A stretch of 64,000 nucleotides of DNA from a virus. A program made the translations under genes and the position numbers. The stretch is from positions 27,561-91,560 of the IMG/VR virus record IMGVR_UViG_3300023174_000110; one strand, given 5' to 3'. Below the pieces are notes generated by a model, which was given only the letters and a program-made list of their open reading frames with translations, did no database searches and was not told the origin of the DNA. This document shows, one piece after another, positions 25,999 through 63,958 of the stretch; the stretch's first letter is position 1; every line of letters starts with the position of its first letter.

Positions 25999-28900
25999 TT
26001 AAACCGCCGATGGTAAAGCGATAGCACGAATGTCCGAAAGGTACGGAACAAAAGTGTTATCTGATGTTGATAAAACAACTTTAATAGCGAATTGGCTAAA
26101 GTTGTTATACGTTTGATTTGTTACATCACTAGTATATGAAACATAATTTTGTGCTTTGCCAAATGATCCTGGTGCGGCAACAAACTCATATGTATCATCT
26201 CGTGTTTGGGAATATAATGAATCACTATTGTTAATTAGTGTCATCAATTGCCATGTACCTTCTTCAAATTTCTGTGTATCACTTCTAGAAAGTATTTTAT
26301 AATATACGTATATATTTGTATTGACCGGACGATAAGCAGTAAAGTAAACTCTTAGATCGCCAGAATCAAAACCTTGGTTCAACACAACCTTCTTAGTAAA
26401 ATATCTGGCCAATGCATTGCCACCAGATTTAGAAGTTTCACCAGCAAGAATAACGGAGGCATTTGAATTGCCAGAACGAGTACTATTATCCGTTATTGTT
26501 ATTGTGGGAGTAGTTATATAACCTGAACCAGCATTAGTAATGTAAACACTATCAATAACACCGCCAACAACGTTGGCCATCGCAGTTGCGCCGGTACCAT
26601 AACCATCAGTAGAGTTCACGGTTACGGAAACTGTTTGTGCATTGTATCCTGTTCCACCAGAAACAACTGTTATAATGTTGTTTGATAATCCAAGATTATT
26701 AATGCTCCATGTTATAGAATATACACTTAATCCATCATCAGAAATTACAGGAGAAACAGCATCATTTACAGAAGTCATTGTTGCAAATAGAGAGAATGAC
26801 GTATTTGAATTTGCATTTAATACACGTTGTCCCAAACCATCATTCAAATAAATGTCATCATAAGTTGGTGTACCAAATTTACCAGGAGTTACACTTACAG
26901 TAGGTGCACCTGCATATGATGATTTTACTGTTGATGCATATTGGTAACCCACAGAAGTTGTACCTGGTATAAAATCTGTTGTTGAAATATTAAAAGCATC
27001 GACAGAAACATCCGTGTTCTCAAAAGATGTTATTGTATTTGAAATAGAATTTGCATTTAAATAATATTCTATTTCTTGACCAACAATTTTTCTACTAGGT
27101 AATTTATTAGGTACAACAAATTGTATTTGTGGTTGTGAACCAACATCAAATACACATCTTTCAACAACAAACATCATAGATTCATTTTGATCTGCTGTCC
27201 ATGTTTGAGAATTTTGTGATACAAATAATGAACCAACATACGGCGCAGAGTTAATTTTTGTTGTTGTAGCTGGTGTAGGATCAGTTGGCAAATTTTTAAC
27301 TGATGAAGAAATTGCTGTATCACCGTTTTGTGCGGTATAAATTGTATACTCGTTAGATGTAGGACATTTTAATATAAATGCATACAATTTATTTGGTTCC
27401 AAATAAACTGGTGTTGGGAATTTAAATACTGTATATGTATTAGGATTTAAATAGTGTGGATCATTGGATGTTTTTATGTGTTCGGCTGTTAAAGTTACTT
27501 GTGAATGATCCAAAGTTTCTCCACCAGGATATCCATTGACTGTACCTACAATTGATATTGTTACAGGTGCATATCCAGTAGAAGGCTTGGTGGCAAAGAA
27601 AACTTTAATTGAATCTAAAAAACAACCGTTTGGATAATTATCTTTATCGATAATAAATGTTTGAGCTACTGGATCCCACACAGTTGTGTAATTATAACTA
27701 CTTACATTTGTTTTGGTTTGTGTTTGTGTAAATGTATTTTTTGCTGAATCAATTGAAGAAGCATAATTTACACCTTGTTTTGTTGTTTGTAAACCAGAAG
27801 CATGGAATGTAGCTTCAGAGAATGTTGTTTCTGAACCTATATTACCAGCAATTCGATTATCTACTCTGAAAGTTCTTTGGCCTGTTTTGAAAGTAGCACC
27901 AGGCAAAGCAAAAATACCAGATAACATACCAACTTCATTGGTTGTTAGTTTTCCAATAGAGTAGATGTCATTTGCAGCTGCACCAACTCCTGTTGTTAAA
28001 GTTGCTGTTTTTGTGGTCGTGTTGTACGCACTAATTACAGAAGATCGTCCTGCACCAGAACCACTAATAACATACAATGTTTGACCGGTATAAATGTCGG
28101 TGTTTGATGACGCAACAGACAACTGAATCGATGTTGTTGAGTTTGCACTTCTTAATCTTCCTGATACACCGGTATATGAAACAATTCTACCACTAGCAGT
28201 AGATGATTGATATTGTCCAGATGTATTAAATTTGGCATTCTGCAGTGTTACGCCAGAATTAAATGTAATTCCTTCTAAAGTTACAACATACAAACGAACA
28301 TTTGAGTTTTGTGGATTAACATAATAAGAAACAATTTTGGCATAAGGTGTAAAGTTACCACCAGCAAATAAACCAATAACATCTCCATCAGCAAATGATC
28401 CACTAACATTTGTTAATTCTATAATATTTGGTTTACGAATATATTTGTCAACTAAAACACCATCAAAATATGCACTTACATCGGTGTTAACCAACATACC
28501 ATAAGTATTGAACTGTAAAAATTGTTGGCGAATATATGGTAAAATACTGACATCGGTAATGTATCCAGATGTTTCGAGGTAACTGGAACTTAACTTATCA
28601 TATTTACCTAATACAGTTTTTTGTTGTTGCTCTGTGTAGGTTGTAACCTGATTTACTCTCCAGTTTCTTCCGGCAGCAATTACATTATCTGTGGTGGTGG
28701 CTACTGTTGTTTTCCAATCACCAACTTGCAACACATTAACTTGATCACTTGCACGATATACTTGTAGATTTGGATCAACAATTAATAAATCAGGAGCTTT
28801 TTCGGTATCAACCCAATTGTCCATTGGAGGAGTTAAATCCATTACACCCGAATTCAATGATACAGCAAATGGATTTAAATTAACTGTACGAGAAGCAATC

Positions 28901-56760: not shown

Positions 56761-57354
56761 TTAAGCCATTAATTTTTTAAACTGTTTTTCAAATTCACCA
56801 ACGTATGTTGAATTTAATAATTTTATATTTCTATACGATTCGTTTAATTCTATTTCATAATCATAATAATAAACAATATTACGACTGGTTGTTACAGTAA
56901 AAGGTCCGGTTGACATACTACGTTCAAATGTTCCAGTTTGTAAATTAATGTAAGATTGTTGATCAATGATATATCTGTCTGTTGTAGTAGTATTTGTTTT
57001 TGAATCATACTTTGTAATTATTTTTTCGTAATGGTGAACAGTTGATTTAGGATTAAAAGTATATTTGTCAGAGATATACGATTCTAAAACACTAGATTGT
57101 AAAGGCCAATGCCATTGTGGATCCATTATTTGATTAACATACAAAACTATCCAATAACGATAAGAATCACCATAATACTTATAAGCAATGATTTCTGGAG
57201 TATCACCTTCTTGTATATCATATGAATAATACACTAATGGATTTTTAAGTATTTCTGGAATAACACTACATCTTGCCATTAAATTGACCATTAAAGATGA
57301 CTGGCCACTCGGATCAGTTTTAATAATTTTAGGCAACGTATCGAAGTATTGCAT
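56761..57354 (-). CDS. gp53: Baseplate wedge subunit
   Basis: YF..LP, Y.I.EGDTPE.IA.KYYG....WIVL..N...DP...WP. Confidence 0.9.
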   Translation of the reverse strand: MQYFDTLPKIIKTDPSGQSSLMVNLMARCSVIPEILKNPLVYYSYDIQEGDTPEIIAYKYYGDSYRYWIVLYVNQIMDPQWHWPLQSSVLESYISDKYTFNPKSTVHHYEKIITKYDSKTNTTTTDRYIIDQQSYINLQTGTFERSMSTGPFTVTTSRNIVYYYDYEIELNESYRNIKLLNSTYVGEFEKQFKKLMA

Positions 57355-58349
57355 TAGTAACCTTCTTTTTCTATTTTTTCTCTTGTGATGAGTTCAATTT
57401 CTTTAAAATTCATAGTCAATGTTGTTTGAACTGGTGCGCCATCACCAAAAGTTGAAAATCCATTTGGAGAATAATTGACATCAATACTTTCAATTACACT
57501 TTCTGCAACTCGTCCAACATTTTGATTTCTTCTACCATTAAATAGGAAATCTAAATTAAATGTTGAAGGTGGTACAAAAAACATACCTGCTGTGCCTTCT
57601 GCTAATCTTGGTGCCGCATGTGTTTTAAACATTTTAACAATCTTTGCAACTGTTTCTGCTTCTTTTTTAGAATATGGTGTAAACGTAAATGCCATTTGAT
57701 ATGTTCTAAACTCGATACCATCAAATAATAATTGTTGTTGTGGGTTAAAAGCAAATCCTGCACCTTTAGCTAATAATCTTGCTGGGCCACTATTAGCAAT
57801 AGAAGCAATTGCACCAACTGCTTTTCCTATACCAGGAACTTGAGCAGCTGCATCAACTAAACTTAATTGACCATATGAAGCATTGTATGTAAAAGCCATT
57901 GTATCTGGTATATACAATGATATTGTGGCTACGGATCTTTTTGTTGGATTTTTAATATTGATACTGTCATTACCTAAAAAATCTTTTAGTCCTTTAACCG
58001 ACTTATCTAATTCACCTTCAAGTGATATTTTTCCTTTTCTTATATCATCAATGTAAGATGTGGCAGCGTTCCATCCAGATTCTAAAGAACTGCCGGCATT
58101 ATTAATGGCACCAACTATTTTGTCTTTGCCCTTAATAATACTACTTTTTACACTTTCATAGGTCGCTGGTTCTATTTCATTAATGTTGATTACAACGACA
58201 TGGCCTCTTGTTGACGTTTGTAAATCTCTAGGATATTGTAAATCGGTTCGGCCAAACTTATTCCCAAATAAAGCACCCAAAGGACCTTCAACTACAGCAC
58301 CAGGTATGGAAACGCCACCTATGGAATTTGGTATGGTAATGATAGCCAT
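57354..58349 (-). CDS. gp48: Baseplate tail-tube cap
   Basis: L.YP.DL, I.LY.P, NP....LF.G..FR.Y...F.F.P....EA..V..I...FK. Confidence 0.85.
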   Translation of the reverse strand: MAIITIPNSIGGVSIPGAVVEGPLGALFGNKFGRTDLQYPRDLQTSTRGHVVVININEIEPATYESVKSSIIKGKDKIVGAINNAGSSLESGWNAATSYIDDIRKGKISLEGELDKSVKGLKDFLGNDSINIKNPTKRSVATISLYIPDTMAFTYNASYGQLSLVDAAAQVPGIGKAVGAIASIANSGPARLLAKGAGFAFNPQQQLLFDGIEFRTYQMAFTFTPYSKKEAETVAKIVKMFKTHAAPRLAEGTAGMFFVPPSTFNLDFLFNGRRNQNVGRVAESVIESIDVNYSPNGFSTFGDGAPVQTTLTMNFKEIELITREKIEKEGY

Positions 58350-58379
58350 TGAATCCTCTATAAAAAAAGTTATACATAG

Positions 58380-58387
58380 TATTTATA
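58380..58387 (-). promoter_or_regulatory. T4-type late promoter TATAAATA for the gp48 operon
   Basis: Exact consensus in the divergent gap. Confidence 0.8.
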
Positions 58388-58821
58388 TGGCTTATAATGG
58401 ACGTTTTACACCCTCTAATCCTCAAAAATACGTTGGGGACACTAATAATATCATTTATCGCTCTTCTTGGGAGTGTAAAATGATGAACTGGCTCGACAAA
58501 AATCCAGAGATTATATCATGGGCTTCTGAAGAATTGATTATTCCATACAAATCTCCAAAAGATGGCCTCTGGCATCGATACTTTCCAGATTTCATTGTAA
58601 AAGTCAAAACTAGAAGTGGAACTGTGAAAACTATGATGTTGGAAGTCAAACCAAAAAAACAAACTATTAGTCCTGAACCTAAAAAACGTATTACAAAACA
58701 ATATATAAACGAGGTTGTCACATACGGAATTAATCAAGCTAAATGGAAAGCAGCAACGGAATATTGTTTAGACCGTGGCTGGGAGTTTAAAATTATAACA
58801 GAAGAACATCTAGGAATATAG
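58387..58821 (+). CDS. gp4: Head completion nuclease (TnsA-like fold)
   Basis: Probable start MAYNGRF; NP.KY.GD, YRSSWE, W.SEE, RYFPDF, EVKP, N.AKW.AA. Confidence 0.93.
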   Translation: MAYNGRFTPSNPQKYVGDTNNIIYRSSWECKMMNWLDKNPEIISWASEELIIPYKSPKDGLWHRYFPDFIVKVKTRSGTVKTMMLEVKPKKQTISPEPKKRITKQYINEVVTYGINQAKWKAATEYCLDRGWEFKIITEEHLGI

Positions 58822-59431: not shown

Positions 59432-60100
59432 ATGCCTCGCAACATTAACGATTTTAAAGCTAGTTTTACAAAAGACCTAGCAAGAGCAAACAGGTTTGAT
59501 GTAAACATTCCTATTCCTTTAACTTTGATACCATATATTAAATCGGCTAGAAATTTGATATATCGTTGTGAAAATGCCAATTTACCCGGTAGAAGTTTAA
59601 TGACTGTTGAACAAAAAATTGGATCAAATCCTGTTGAAAAATATCCATACTTAACTGGTTATAATGACATTGATTTGACCTTTATTGTTGATGGTGATAT
59701 GCAACAGAAAATATTTTTTGATGCTTGGATGAATTTTATTAATCCAACGTATAATTATAATTTTAGGTATAAAAGTGATTATGCAACTACAATACAAGTC
59801 AATCAATATGATTTAGAAAATAAAATATCATATTCAGTTAATTTATTTGATGCTTTTCCAATTTCAATGAATCAATTAGATTTGGATTGGTCATCGGACA
59901 ACCCACATAAACTTTCAGTAACTTTTGCATACACCCGTTGGAATAACAACTCTCTACAATCATTTGGCATGGAATTGGTAGATGCTGGCCTTGCCAATTT
60001 CTCCGATGTGGTTGGTGGTTTGGGTGGAAATGCTCAAGGAGCTTTAAGTGCAGCTGGACAATCGATAGTAAACAACATACAAAATACCATATTCAAGTGA
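59432..60100 (+). CDS. gp54: Baseplate tail-tube initiator (gp19-fold)
   Basis: LAR.NRF.V, C....LPG, DAFP....L.W, VTFAY. Confidence 0.75.
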   Translation: MPRNINDFKASFTKDLARANRFDVNIPIPLTLIPYIKSARNLIYRCENANLPGRSLMTVEQKIGSNPVEKYPYLTGYNDIDLTFIVDGDMQQKIFFDAWMNFINPTYNYNFRYKSDYATTIQVNQYDLENKISYSVNLFDAFPISMNQLDLDWSSDNPHKLSVTFAYTRWNNNSLQSFGMELVDAGLANFSDVVGGLGGNAQGALSAAGQSIVNNIQNTIFK

Positions 60101-60120: not shown

Positions 60121-60846
60121 ATGGCTTTACCAAAACTTGACGTGCCAACATATGAAATAGAATTGCCATTATCAAAAAAGAAAATTAAATACAGACCATT
60201 TTTAGTTAAAGAACAAAGAAATCTATTAATGGCCATTGAATCCAATGAAACTTCCACGATTCACCAAAACGTAAAAGATATTCTTTATAATTGTACATTG
60301 ACAGAGGGTATTGATATTGAAAAATTGCCAATTATAGATGTCGAATATTATTTTGTTAACCTTCGTGCCAAGTCAGTAGGTGAGATTGTTGAATCAAAAT
60401 ACAAATGTAATAATGAAGTGGATGGTAAAATGTGTGGCAATTTAATGGAAAAAGATATTAATCTACTTGATTTAAAAGTTCAAAGAGATGAAACCATTTC
60501 AGATGAAATTAAATTGACCGATACAATTTCTATTAAATTAAAGTATCCAGAATTTAGTATCGTACAAGATTCCATCAAGTATGAAAATATTACAGAAACC
60601 ACCTTTAATATGATTGCCAATTCAATTGAATATATTTACGATGGTGAACAATTTTATTACGGAAACGAAGCACAACCAGGTGAAATGTTGGAATTTGTTG
60701 AAGGCATGAATCAGGCTCAGTTTGCTAAAGTAGAGAATTTTTTTAATAATTTACCAAAACTAAAAGAAATAATTGAAATTGATTGCTCAAAGTGTGGGTT
60801 TCATCATAAAATAGAAGTAGAAGGCCTAGAAAGTTTTTTCGGCTAA
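60121..60846 (+). CDS. gp26: Baseplate hub assembly protein
   Basis: LP....P.Y...LP, YRPFLVKE, LRAKSVGE, C..CG, EGL.SFF; AAGGAG SD. Confidence 0.9.
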   Translation: MALPKLDVPTYEIELPLSKKKIKYRPFLVKEQRNLLMAIESNETSTIHQNVKDILYNCTLTEGIDIEKLPIIDVEYYFVNLRAKSVGEIVESKYKCNNEVDGKMCGNLMEKDINLLDLKVQRDETISDEIKLTDTISIKLKYPEFSIVQDSIKYENITETTFNMIANSIEYIYDGEQFYYGNEAQPGEMLEFVEGMNQAQFAKVENFFNNLPKLKEIIEIDCSKCGFHHKIEVEGLESFFG

Positions 60847-61028
60847 TTTTTCGTCATGACAATCTGAGTAATTATTACAAGACAAACTTTTCATTGATAC
60901 AACACCACAAATATAGTTTGTCAGAGCTTGAAAATATGATGCCTTGGGAACGTGACATTTACGTTTCTATGTTGATTGCGTATATTGAAGAAGAAAACCA
61001 AAAGATACGAGAGAAACAAAGAAAATAG
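60840..61028 (+). CDS. gp51: gp51-like hub assembly chaperone segment, probably reached by -1 frameshift from gp26
   Basis: Not in ORF track. Reads RLIFRHDNLSNYYKTNFSLIQHHKYSLSELENMMPWERDIYVSMLIAYIEEENQKIREKQRK*; no in-frame ATG before the conserved region. Confidence 0.8.
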   Translation, partial: RLIFRHDNLSNYYKTNFSLIQHHKYSLSELENMMPWERDIYVSMLIAYIEEENQKIREKQRK

Positions 61029-61031
61029 TAA

Positions 61032-62582
61032 ATGGACTATTACAAAGCTAAAGACATCAGAAAACAAGGTTTAATATCTTTGATGGCCGAAAGGTTATCA
61101 TCTGGCGTTGGCACGGGTTCTGCCATTGGTGGATCAATTAGTGATAAAACAAAAGCCACCTTTACTGGAATTAAACAACGATTCGATCCTTTAAACATTG
61201 CCAGAGTTGTAACTGGCGGCTCAAAATTTGCTCCCGCTTTACTTGGTGCTCTAACAGGAAGAAGTAAACGAGATATTGGTTTCTTTACTGGCAAGAAAAA
61301 ACGTGAGTTTGCAAATCTAAAAAATTCTCCAGTTCAAAATTCTAACCAGTTTGCTCAATATCTTGGCCAAATTTATAATTTATTAATGAAAATTGAGAAT
61401 GACAGAAAATTGGAATTGGACGAAAGGCAAAGACAAAAAGAAGAAAGTGAGTTTGAAGAAGATCGTAGAAATCAAGCTTTGATTGAAGCATTGACTGCAA
61501 GAAAAAAACCAAAAGTAACAAGAAAACAAACAAAAAAATTAGATGATGCCAATAAAAAAGTTGGCCAAGAAAAAAAGAAAACGGATCAATTAGGTAAACC
61601 AAAAGAAGAACCAGTTACACCACCTAAAGAAGTAACTAAACCAACAGTACCCGCACCACAACCAACTCCTACTGCACCAGCACCTACACCTAAACCAACA
61701 CCAACAGCAAAACCTCCTGTTACACCAGCACCTAAACCACCTACGGCAGGTAAGATTGGTGGAGGAGCGATATTAGCCGGCGGTGCAATTGCTGGTACTG
61801 CCGCTTTAGTTGGTAAAGAATCTCTTGCGGCCAATATTTCGAAATATGAAAGTGGTAAAGCAGGTTATAATGCTTACAATAAAGGTACAGTAGGTAACAG
61901 AATGATACCTTCGGATAAACCAATTGATTTTAGTAAAATGACCATCTCTGAATTTTTAAGACGGGGTGAATTAAAACAAGGTGATCCGGACAGGCTTTTT
62001 GCTGTTGGTAAATATCAAATAATTCCAACAACAATGAAAGATTTAATTAAACAATTAAAAATAGATCCCGATACAACATATTTGGATCCAGCCACTCAAG
62101 ATTTACTTTTTACCAATGGTCTTGTTGGCCAAAGAAGAAAAAAAGTAGATGCATATGTGAAAGGCCAAAGTGATGACCGTGATGGTGCTATATTAGAATT
62201 GGCTAAAGAGTTTGCTTCGGTCGGCATACCCTATGACATGGATGTTGGTAAGAAAAAATTAAGAAAAGGTGATTCTTATTACTCTGGTATAGGCGGTAAC
62301 GTAGCACACAATTCACCAGAGCAGGTGGGTGCTGCATTAGATGCTGATAGATTAAAAAATATGCAAGGTAATAAATCAAGTGCTGTACCATCTGTACCAA
62401 CTGGTAATAAAATTGACTCCGACACAAAAGAAAACATGGGATTAAAAAAATCAATGCAACAATCTCCAGTGATTAACAAAAGTGTAAATAATACCAATGT
62501 AAATAACAAAACGGTATCAGATAAAGATCCCGAAAAAGAAGATGACACGAATCCTTTGATTAAGAAAGCTAGATCAACATGA
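61032..62582 (+). CDS. Tape-measure-like protein A with Pro-rich linker and lysozyme-like domain
   Basis: Follows gp26/gp51; ES...YN, A.G.YQ.IP.T, P.TQD, EFAS motifs of lambda-lysozyme-like muramidases. Confidence 0.65.
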   Translation: MDYYKAKDIRKQGLISLMAERLSSGVGTGSAIGGSISDKTKATFTGIKQRFDPLNIARVVTGGSKFAPALLGALTGRSKRDIGFFTGKKKREFANLKNSPVQNSNQFAQYLGQIYNLLMKIENDRKLELDERQRQKEESEFEEDRRNQALIEALTARKKPKVTRKQTKKLDDANKKVGQEKKKTDQLGKPKEEPVTPPKEVTKPTVPAPQPTPTAPAPTPKPTPTAKPPVTPAPKPPTAGKIGGGAILAGGAIAGTAALVGKESLAANISKYESGKAGYNAYNKGTVGNRMIPSDKPIDFSKMTISEFLRRGELKQGDPDRLFAVGKYQIIPTTMKDLIKQLKIDPDTTYLDPATQDLLFTNGLVGQRRKKVDAYVKGQSDDRDGAILELAKEFASVGIPYDMDVGKKKLRKGDSYYSGIGGNVAHNSPEQVGAALDADRLKNMQGNKSSAVPSVPTGNKIDSDTKENMGLKKSMQQSPVINKSVNNTNVNNKTVSDKDPEKEDDTNPLIKKARST

Positions 62583-63958
62583 ACTATCAAGAAGCCAAAA
62601 AGATAAGAGAAAAATCTTACATATCATATTTGACCGAAAAATTATCGGAAGGTCAAGGCGTTGGCTCGGCTATAAAAGCCACTTTGTCTGATAAATCAAA
62701 AGCAAGGTCTAAAGGTTTTAGTGAAAAGTTTGATGTATTGAATATTGCTAAATTTATGACAGGCGGTTCTAAATTTGCTCCTGCTTTGCTTGGTAGTATG
62801 TTAGGTAGAACACAACAAGATATTCAATATTTTTCTGGTACGAAAAAAGCAAAAGAAGTTGGTGGCTCAGCTACAAAAATTGGTCAATTGGAATCGGATT
62901 CAAATGTATTGGATATTCTTTCCAAGATATACACTCTATTAAAAACGACAGATGAAAATGATACTTTACGTAGAGAAAAAGAAAATAGTTTTAAAGAAGA
63001 AGAACAATCTGAAAAAGAAAGAAGGCACAAAGCTTTAATCGAAGCCATCACAGGCAAAAAACAAACAACCACGGCTGCACCAACAGCAACAAAAGCCGAT
63101 GATGGTTCTGGTTTATTATCAACCATATTGGGTATAGTAACAGGTATGATTGGTGATGCAATCAAAGGTGTGATGTCAATTATATCAGGTATTACTAGTT
63201 TTATTTCAATGATCACGTCTGCATTTGGAGGTTTAGCTTCAATTGGTAAATTATTATTTGGCCTTGGAAGATTTTTAATGTTTAATCCTGTTGGTCTAGC
63301 CATTCTTGCTGGCGTAGGAATAGGATATGCTATTTGGAAAATAATAAAATCTGAACCTAGTGAAGAAGCTAAAGCTGAAGCCGCAGGAATAGCACAGGCT
63401 GAAAAGGTTGGTGGTTTAGCTGGTGTTAAAAATGAAATGGATCGCCGTAAAAAATTACCAGAATATGACAGAACAATGGCAGAAATACAAGATTATCAAT
63501 TCAATTATAATGAAAGTGTACCATTAAACAATGTTCAATTAAAAGGTTTTGCTGAGAGAGGACCTGGAGCTTTAGAGGCTGTTGAAGATTATAAAATGGA
63601 AAGAGATAGAGTTAAAAAGGCTATTGCTGAGCAAAATCAAACAGCATCGCCTGTACCGGTAACACCAACAGCACAACCAAGTGATTCAACCGAAAAACCA
63701 ATGGTGCCTAGCCAAGAATCAAAACCACAAGCAATGGAACCAATGGCGTCCACTACGAATAAATTAAATACTGTAACCAGTGAAAATTTAGAATTAAACT
63801 TACCAAGCACTCCTGAATCTGTTATCAATTCACAAATCATAAACAATACAAACGTAAATTCAGTCAAGAGCCAGAAACCAAAAGGACCTATTCCGTCAGT
63901 AAGAAATATGGAAGATTCTTTTCAGAGAATGTTATCCAACAGTTTACGAGTTGTATAA
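62579..63958 (+). CDS. Tape-measure-like protein B with hydrophobic helices
   Basis: N-terminus paralogous to 61032..62582; hydrophobic stretch ending FNPVGLAILAGVGIGYAIW. Confidence 0.6.
   Translation: MNYQEAKKIREKSYISYLTEKLSEGQGVGSAIKATLSDKSKARSKGFSEKFDVLNIAKFMTGGSKFAPALLGSMLGRTQQDIQYFSGTKKAKEVGGSATKIGQLESDSNVLDILSKIYTLLKTTDENDTLRREKENSFKEEEQSEKERRHKALIEAITGKKQTTTAAPTATKADDGSGLLSTILGIVTGMIGDAIKGVMSIISGITSFISMITSAFGGLASIGKLLFGLGRFLMFNPVGLAILAGVGIGYAIWKIIKSEPSEEAKAEAAGIAQAEKVGGLAGVKNEMDRRKKLPEYDRTMAEIQDYQFNYNESVPLNNVQLKGFAERGPGALEAVEDYKMERDRVKKAIAEQNQTASPVPVTPTAQPSDSTEKPMVPSQESKPQAMEPMASTTNKLNTVTSENLELNLPSTPESVINSQIINNTNVNSVKSQKPKGPIPSVRNMEDSFQRMLSNSLRVV

Follow-up and report, generated by a model that had tools for sequence, protein, structure and literature searches.

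A conserved TTTTTTC heptamer at the end of gp26 probably allows one gene of a freshwater T4-like phage to encode 241-aa and 302-aa proteins by a ribosomal -1 slip

The window analyzed in this study is a stretch of 64,000 nucleotides (positions 27,561 to 91,560 of the IMG/VR record IMGVR_UViG_3300023174_000110). It comes from an uncultured freshwater T4-like phage, whose own record is a 91.5-kb fragment and about 55% complete. A gp26-like gene is located on the plus strand at 60121..60846 and encodes a protein of 241 aa, which we propose to be a tail assembly chaperone in its short form (TAC-N, G-like). The protein matched the Pfam family PF12322 (T4_baseplate) with an E value of 1e-57 and 195.8 bits, the curated cut-off being 24.5, and it matched phrog_150 (baseplate hub) with an E value of 3.8e-62. 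The last codons of the gene are GAA AGT TTT TTC GGC TAA. The TAA stop lies at 60844..60846 (+), one sense codon after the heptamer TTTTTTC, and the DNA around this site is AT-rich, with 31-37% G+C.

The gene directly upstream of gp26 (59432..60100, +) belongs to the tail tube family and is gp54/gp48-like; it matched phrog_45 (tail tube) with an E value of 7.4e-40, together with PF23849 and PF06841 near their cut-offs. Two tape-measure-like genes follow gp26 directly (61032-62582 and 62579-63958, both +), and they are presumed to encode the client of the chaperone, judging from their position and from weak matches. The second of these proteins showed weak matches to the tape-measure phrogs 8125 (E 2.5e-4) and 1533 (E 2.7e-3), while the first has a Pro-rich linker and matched families of unknown function only. 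The two genes (61032-63958) overlap by the sequence ATGA. Elsewhere in the same region, a gp4-like head closure ORF (58183-58821, +; 212 aa; phrog_218, PF08722 TnsA-like N domain) begins inside a gp48-like gene of the opposite strand (57354-58349, -). As nothing before residue 69 is matched by the family, the true start probably lies near 58387.

The proposed -1 slip site is the heptamer T TTT TTC at 60834..60840 (+), which has the X XXY YYZ arrangement. The -1 frame follows a TAA at 60807-09 and is open from 60810 to a TAG at 61026-28. Its part from the slip site onward (60840..61028, +) is an extension of 62 aa plus the TAG, which has no start codon of its own and corresponds to a gp51-like C-terminal domain. 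The -1 peptide matched phrog_634 ('baseplate hub assembly catalyst', gp51) with an E value of 1.3e-28, and it also matched the C-terminal end of the phrog_150 profile. The first ATG of this frame is found deep in the conserved part, and the first canonical start is the TTG at 60894. The predicted slip product has 240 + 62 = 302 aa, compared with 241 aa for the unslipped protein. The SD-like sequence GAAGG (60820..60824, +), with AAGG at 60821-24, is found 9 nt upstream of the heptamer and is a possible dnaX-type stimulator. The first-pass annotation had described the heptamer near the end of gp26 and its phase, the open -1 frame with its TAG, the gp51-like identity of the -1 peptide, the lack of an ATG before the deep conserved part, an AAGG about 10 nt upstream of the heptamer and a 302-aa fusion versus 241 aa, and our analysis confirmed each of these points. 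The word TTTTTTC occurs 22 times in the window, where about 30 occurrences are expected. The heptamer alone is no more than chance, and the weight of the case is carried by its position and by its conservation in relatives.

Near-identical sequence is present in the lake and freshwater metagenomes of many studies, and the phage lineage is widespread in lakes. We examined 24 sequencing runs as contigs. At least half of the sampled words of the segment 60121-61031 were found in 16 DNA runs from about ten lake or freshwater studies (2018-2025), and contigs of four metatranscriptome libraries covered parts of it at 85-99% identity, although such RNA contigs are insensitive to minority transcripts, slippage, expression or strand.

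Relatives were collected by five collection scans and from several annotated records, which gave 237 loci with the gp26 end and at least 200 nt downstream. These loci form 19 clusters at 70% identity and, in the wider scan, 156 distinct junctions. They cover the window's clade (74-99% gp26 identity), myophages of Prochlorococcus and Synechococcus, the phages ValKK3 (Vibrio), RL2RES (Rhizobium), ORM_20 (Ochrobactrum) and pf16 (Pseudomonas), and many uncultured lineages. From viral_contigs, no more than 2, 1 and 7 loci were obtained with Vibrio, Rhizobium and T4-type gp26 proteins as queries, respectively, so these clades are thinly sampled. The first-pass annotation had made its proposal depend on the conservation of the heptamer and of the -1 phase in relatives. 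An in-frame T TTT TTN was present in all loci (237/237), and the gp51-domain profile matched the -1 frame, and no other, again in 237/237. In a first tally, the heptamer was found near the stop in 132 of 143 distinct junctions, ending in TTC in 120, TTT in 10 and TTG in 2. The stop lies about nine codons later in the remaining 11, and their heptamer was recovered by the wider scan. Where the heptamer was near the stop, a single sense codon separated the two in 129 of the 132 distinct junctions.

The conservation of the heptamer goes beyond that of the surrounding codons. Positions 1-6 showed zero entropy across the 156 distinct junctions, compared with 1.2-1.9 bits at nearby third-codon positions. 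The codon before TTT specifies a variable residue (S, N, D, A or T; AGT, TCT, AAT, GAT, GCT, ACT), and the first T of the heptamer is its wobble base; T-ending codons account for only 32-67% of the usage for those residues within these genes. Without exception, TTT serves as the first Phe codon, also in lineages with TTC:TTT ratios of 7:2 (ValKK3-like), 11:2 (RL2RES-like) and 13:1 (pf16). Such codon-usage figures would be very improbable if the lineages were independent, and as the lineages share ancestry, the probabilities derived from them are inflated and overstate the significance. Contigs of three RNA libraries, like many IMG/VR relatives, show a G>A difference at 60833 (AGT to AAT, Ser to Asn), by which the residue changes and the wobble T is preserved.

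The coding frame switches exactly at the heptamer. Upstream of it, the variation was highest at the third positions of the 0 frame (1.59 bits) and lowest at the second positions (0.77), and from the first base past the heptamer the pattern of variation was that of the -1 frame. The first -1 codon is a CGN Arg codon in 115 of 132 distinct junctions, with all four synonyms in use, and the 0-frame residue overlapping it varies among Gly, Val, Ala and Glu. The gp26 stop itself is TAA or TGA among relatives, in ways that preserve a Leu of the -1 frame (CTA, TTA, TTG). Across 80 relatives, the -1 peptide was 75-100% identical (gp26 74-99%), its variation fell mostly at -1 third positions, and no stops were found.

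The start codons of this region are much less constant. In roughly half of the relatives, mainly cyanophages, an ATG occurs 2-4 codons past the slip. The first 12 codons read in the -1 frame are free of ATG in about one half of the distinct junctions, among them those of all 80 members of the window's clade and those of S-MbCM6 and ORM_20. In the window, an ATT overlaps the gp26 stop (60846); clade members have ACA, ACC, ACT, ACG or ATA at this place, and it is therefore not a conserved alternative start. Independent initiation of the gp51-like part was the outcome that the first-pass annotation had set against a frameshift, and no conserved start codon was found among the junctions.

The T4-type phages provide a comparison for both products. 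It is reported that T4 gp26 (208 aa) and gp51 (249 aa) are hub assembly chaperones (Leiman et al. 2010, PMC3004832), that T4 gene 51 is essential, and that gp51 is absent from the particle (PMC3004832). In the gp51 proteins of Aeromonas phage AS-gz and of RB10 (Tequatrovirus), we found that residues 1-200 constitute a full PF12322 domain (E 1.7e-45 and 4.3e-55, respectively). The last ~48 residues of T4-type gp51 (249 aa) are the gp51 domain, in frame with PF12322. When RB10 gp51 was compared by BLASTP with the -1 peptide of the window, residues 200-244 aligned, and the start of the peptide was the slip-site Phe (E 1e-6). The pairwise comparison of T4-group gp26 with gp51 gave an E value of 1e-5. 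As gp51 consists of PF12322 plus an extension that aligns from the slip-site Phe, these data indicate that T4 gp26 and gp51 are paralogues and that gp51 is the in-frame equivalent of the predicted fusion. The first-pass annotation had stated that T4 has 26 and 51 as separate genes. The genes are indeed separate, but gp51 does not constitute a protein type of its own: it is a paralogue of gp26 with the extension added.

The complete genomes of P-SSM2, ValKK3, pf16 and S-MbCM6 have one copy of PF12322, and that of RB10 has two. With a single copy, the long form could be obtained only by recoding. The eight T4-type gp26 lineages mostly keep the motif G-L-x-E-F-F at the C-terminus, and an in-frame heptamer was found in none of them. 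The corresponding codons are GAG TTC TTT in RB10 and F48, GAA TTC TTT in SP18 and GAA TTT GTC in PhT2, and at one T4-type gp26 locus there are six T, but in another phase. Phages with a -1 extension of gp26 thus have the heptamer, and those with gp51 as a separate gene lack it, which argues against the view that it is a mere by-product of the F-F motif.

The order of the two genes varies. In Cronobacter phage leN (Pseudotevenvirus; L263:898-2191), gp51 (247 aa) and then gp26 (185 aa) are located head to tail on one strand, while gp26 and gp51 are divergent in T4, RB10, SP18 and AS-gz, so the two-gene state exists in more than one arrangement. The T4-type gp26 proteins end in F-F-E-L-L, F-F-K-V-I-Q, F-F-K-F-M or F-F-K-L-L (L091:818-1444 (-), L265:218-844 (-), L266:218-841 (-) and L260:1001-1621). 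These ends resemble the first residues of the gp51 extension (..V-F-K-L-L-V-N-P-D-E in gp51). It suggested that T4 gp26 may be a truncated copy of an already fused long form and not the ancestral short form.

The structure of the window's gp26 was predicted with AlphaFold2 from 26 sequences (mean pLDDT 87). When residues 1-95 of this model were compared with 48,161 representative chains, the best matches were three small chains, namely 3fgx (Z 7.7), 3klu (B. subtilis YqbN; Z 7.3) and 2ob9 (the HK97 tail assembly chaperone; Z 6.8), each with 84-86 residues aligned at an rmsd of 3.6-4.0 A. The next unrelated chain had a Z of 4.5, and a second run gave the same order. We take 3fgx and 3klu to be prophage proteins of the chaperone class as well. 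These Z values are middling, and it is therefore the identity of the matched chains, not Z alone, that carries the case for the fold. Foldseek of gp26 against the PDB gave no significant match, with 2ob9 at a probability of only 0.47. No clear structural match was found among the compared chains for residues ~90-240, and the gp26 profile retrieved nothing relevant among the PDB sequences. According to the model, the N-terminal domain of gp26 is of the tail assembly chaperone fold class represented by HK97 2ob9.

Taken together, we consider it probable (roughly 0.78, judged from the sequences and their comparison) that one gene gives rise to the 241-aa and the 302-aa proteins through a ribosomal -1 slip on the conserved TTTTTTC. 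Most ribosomes would stop at the TAA (60844-46) and release gp26 (241 aa), the short form, which would be equivalent to lambda gpG and T4 gp26. A minority would slip back by one base with tRNA-Phe on TTT and TTC of U UUU UUC (60834-60840) and would then read CGG CUA AUU and so on to the TAG at 61026-28. Their product would be the fusion of 302 aa (240 + 62), the equivalent of lambda gpGT, predicted to be orthologous over its full length to T4 gp51. We presume a ribosomal slip that is assisted by the GAAGG 9 nt upstream and yields a low ratio of long to short form. The two forms may then act as chaperones of the downstream tape-measure-like proteins and in hub assembly.

The sequence U_UU.U_UU.C belongs to the efficient -1 heptamers in E. 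coli (the H_HH.U_UU.Y class) and is used by IS elements (PMC4066793). Of the 156 distinct junctions, 151 carry AAGG, GAGG or GGAGG at a distance of 9-10 nt before the heptamer, compared with 7.9% at control positions. The bases of this SD-like motif come from conserved [E/R/K]-Gly codons, and several T4-type gp26 genes, where no slip is required, have it too, so it may be a by-product of these Glu/Arg/Lys-Gly codons. A role as slip stimulator is possible, and we have downgraded the proposal of an independently selected stimulator, as slip-free T4-type gp26 genes often keep the motif. A stimulatory RNA structure was not detected downstream of the heptamer: a single 90-nt fold gave a z of 0.09, and the consensus fold of 17 clade members contained 0 pairs.

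Among the alternative explanations, transcriptional slippage survives best, though we regard it as unlikely. In this case, RNA polymerase would add an extra U on the T6 run, and normal translation of the resulting transcript would yield the same 302-aa fusion. What is conserved is indeed a homopolymeric run of 6-7 T whose phase is in any case set by F-F. Because this motif is conserved at the protein level, the phase of the run cannot count as independent evidence that the slip is ribosomal and not transcriptional. The lack of the downstream RNA structure that is typical of many ribosomal shifts also points in this direction, as does the depletion of seven-U and seven-A runs in E. coli genes, which is in part due to such slippage (PMC4066793). 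On the other hand, bacterial RNA polymerase usually requires some nine A or T in a row for programmed slippage, while the T run here is exactly six in 126 of 143 distinct junctions, rarely 7, and in every case forms a canonical X XXY YYZ heptamer. Contigs from RNA libraries of four studies bridged 60834-60840 without an added or lost base; this evidence is weak, as rare variants are lost from contigs and the libraries may contain DNA. Overall, the comparison of the sequences leads us to favour ribosomal over transcriptional slippage.

It is less probable still that a short gp51 is translated independently, either from the ATG of the cyanophages or, in the window, from ATT 60846 or TTG 60894 or by re-initiation past the gp26 stop, and that the heptamer is a by-product of F-F. 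The database records of P-SSM2, S-SKS1, S-PM2, ValKK3 and RL2RES show gp51 genes of 57-59 aa that either overlap the gp26 stop or begin 2 nt behind it. The ATG of about half of the relatives makes a separately started short gp51 possible there, mainly in the cyanophages, and the window has its ATT over the gp26 stop. However, this ATT is not conserved in the clade, and a start at TTG 60894 would lose about 18 conserved residues, which are also aligned to T4 gp51. The conservation of the -1 frame begins upstream of every candidate start, including the cyanophage ATG, and therefore cannot be explained by separate initiation of gp51. Both the wobble T and the TTT codon persist in spite of codon preference, T4-type gp26 genes with F-F lack the heptamer, and the functional T4 protein is the long fused form. 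Finally, it is scarcely credible that the gp51-like stretch of the window is a decaying, unexpressed remnant: it is without its own start codon or SD, but this view is contradicted by the purifying selection on the -1 peptide (75-100% identical in 80 relatives, no stops) and by the essential nature of T4 gene 51 (PMC3004832).

Returning to the ribosomal slip, we offer two more tentative readings that go further than the papers cited below and that we think somewhat unlikely. One is a slip without any downstream RNA structure in the window's clade; the other is an origin of both T4 genes, 26 and 51, from an already fused long form. According to the first, the slip would rely only on U UUU UUC, the GAAGG 9 nt upstream and a stop one codon later. 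According to the second, the frameshift would be ancestral, and T4 would have replaced it by duplication plus truncation.

The idea of such a frameshift appears to have been published already for T4-like phages by Vladimirov et al. 2022. The Adele paper cites this work for poly-T -1 frameshift signals in the TAC-N genes of T4-like phages, and the PRFect paper cites it for T4-like phages that have a short gene and a longer fused gene instead of frameshifting (PMC10274946). Together, these two statements, as given by the citing papers, make up both the proposal of the first-pass annotation and our main result, so the finding seems to be already known in substance. Both of them, the poly-T slip and the two-gene alternative, were reproduced independently by the present data. 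Our literature searches on gp26/gp51 or the baseplate hub with frameshift or chaperone retrieved nothing relevant, and the earlier paper surfaced through a citing paper.

The annotation of public records is affected by this arrangement. In the records of S-WAM1, S-MbCM6 and ORM_20, the ~180-nt stretch coding for the gp51 part is unannotated (L084:1232-1421, L085:1238-1414 and L086:1244-1437). In those of P-SSM2, S-PM2, S-SKS1 and ValKK3, the extension is annotated as a separate gene of 55-59 aa ('baseplate hub assembly catalyst'), and no joined CDS was found among the public records examined. If the ribosomal slip is accepted, the correct annotation of the window would be join(60121..60840, 60840..61028) with ribosomal slippage, and this is the main practical value of our analysis. 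The tail-chaperone frameshift is found in nearly all long-tailed phages, and a slip in gp26 would close the apparent exception of T4-like phages without it. It would also account for T4 gp51, for a long time a puzzle, as the longer member of a chaperone pair, a point that was apparently in print in 2022, to judge from the citing papers. The phages provide a natural control in this regard: those with one gene always have the heptamer and one PF12322 copy, and those with two genes have no heptamer and two copies.

Compared with the work of Vladimirov et al. 2022 as it is cited, we are apparently dealing with the same phenomenon, here in an uncultured freshwater relative whose whole clade is without an ATG for the downstream part. 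Compared with T4, the gp26 of the window likewise belongs to PF12322, as both T4-group proteins do, and the predicted fusion and T4-type gp51 are colinear, the final ~48 residues of gp51 included. The difference is that T4-type phages have separate, usually divergent paralogous genes without the heptamer, whereas this phage has one gene and a proposed recoding signal.

The dnaX gene of E. coli, which encodes gamma and tau, is similar in that the -1 slip occurs at a homopolymeric heptamer which is preceded, at about 10 nt, by an SD-like sequence, a spacing comparable to the one found here. It differs in that dnaX also uses a strong hairpin downstream of the slip and in that its shifted frame stops immediately, whereas no structure was found here and a domain of 62 aa would be added.

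The closest functional parallel that we propose is lambda gpG/gpGT (Levin 1993; Xu, Hendrix & Duda 2004; PMC5009743), where two products share a common N-terminus and a -1 slip takes place a few codons before the first stop, as is predicted here. The window gene adjoins tape-measure-like genes, and neither of its T4 counterparts, gp26 and gp51, is a firm virion component. The modelled N-terminal domain of gp26 shares its fold class with HK97 2ob9 (84 residues aligned with a Z of 6.8-7.2 and an rmsd of about 4 A). On the other hand, there is no detectable sequence similarity to the lambda proteins, the gp26 of the window, at 241 aa, exceeds its counterpart in size and carries a further domain behind the chaperone-like one, and the heptamer is U UUU UUC here and G GGA AAG in lambda. 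The first-pass annotation had suggested that gp26/gp51 are the equivalents of G/GT, and the 2ob9-type fold of the model, together with the colinearity of the predicted fusion with T4 gp51, lends support to this suggestion.
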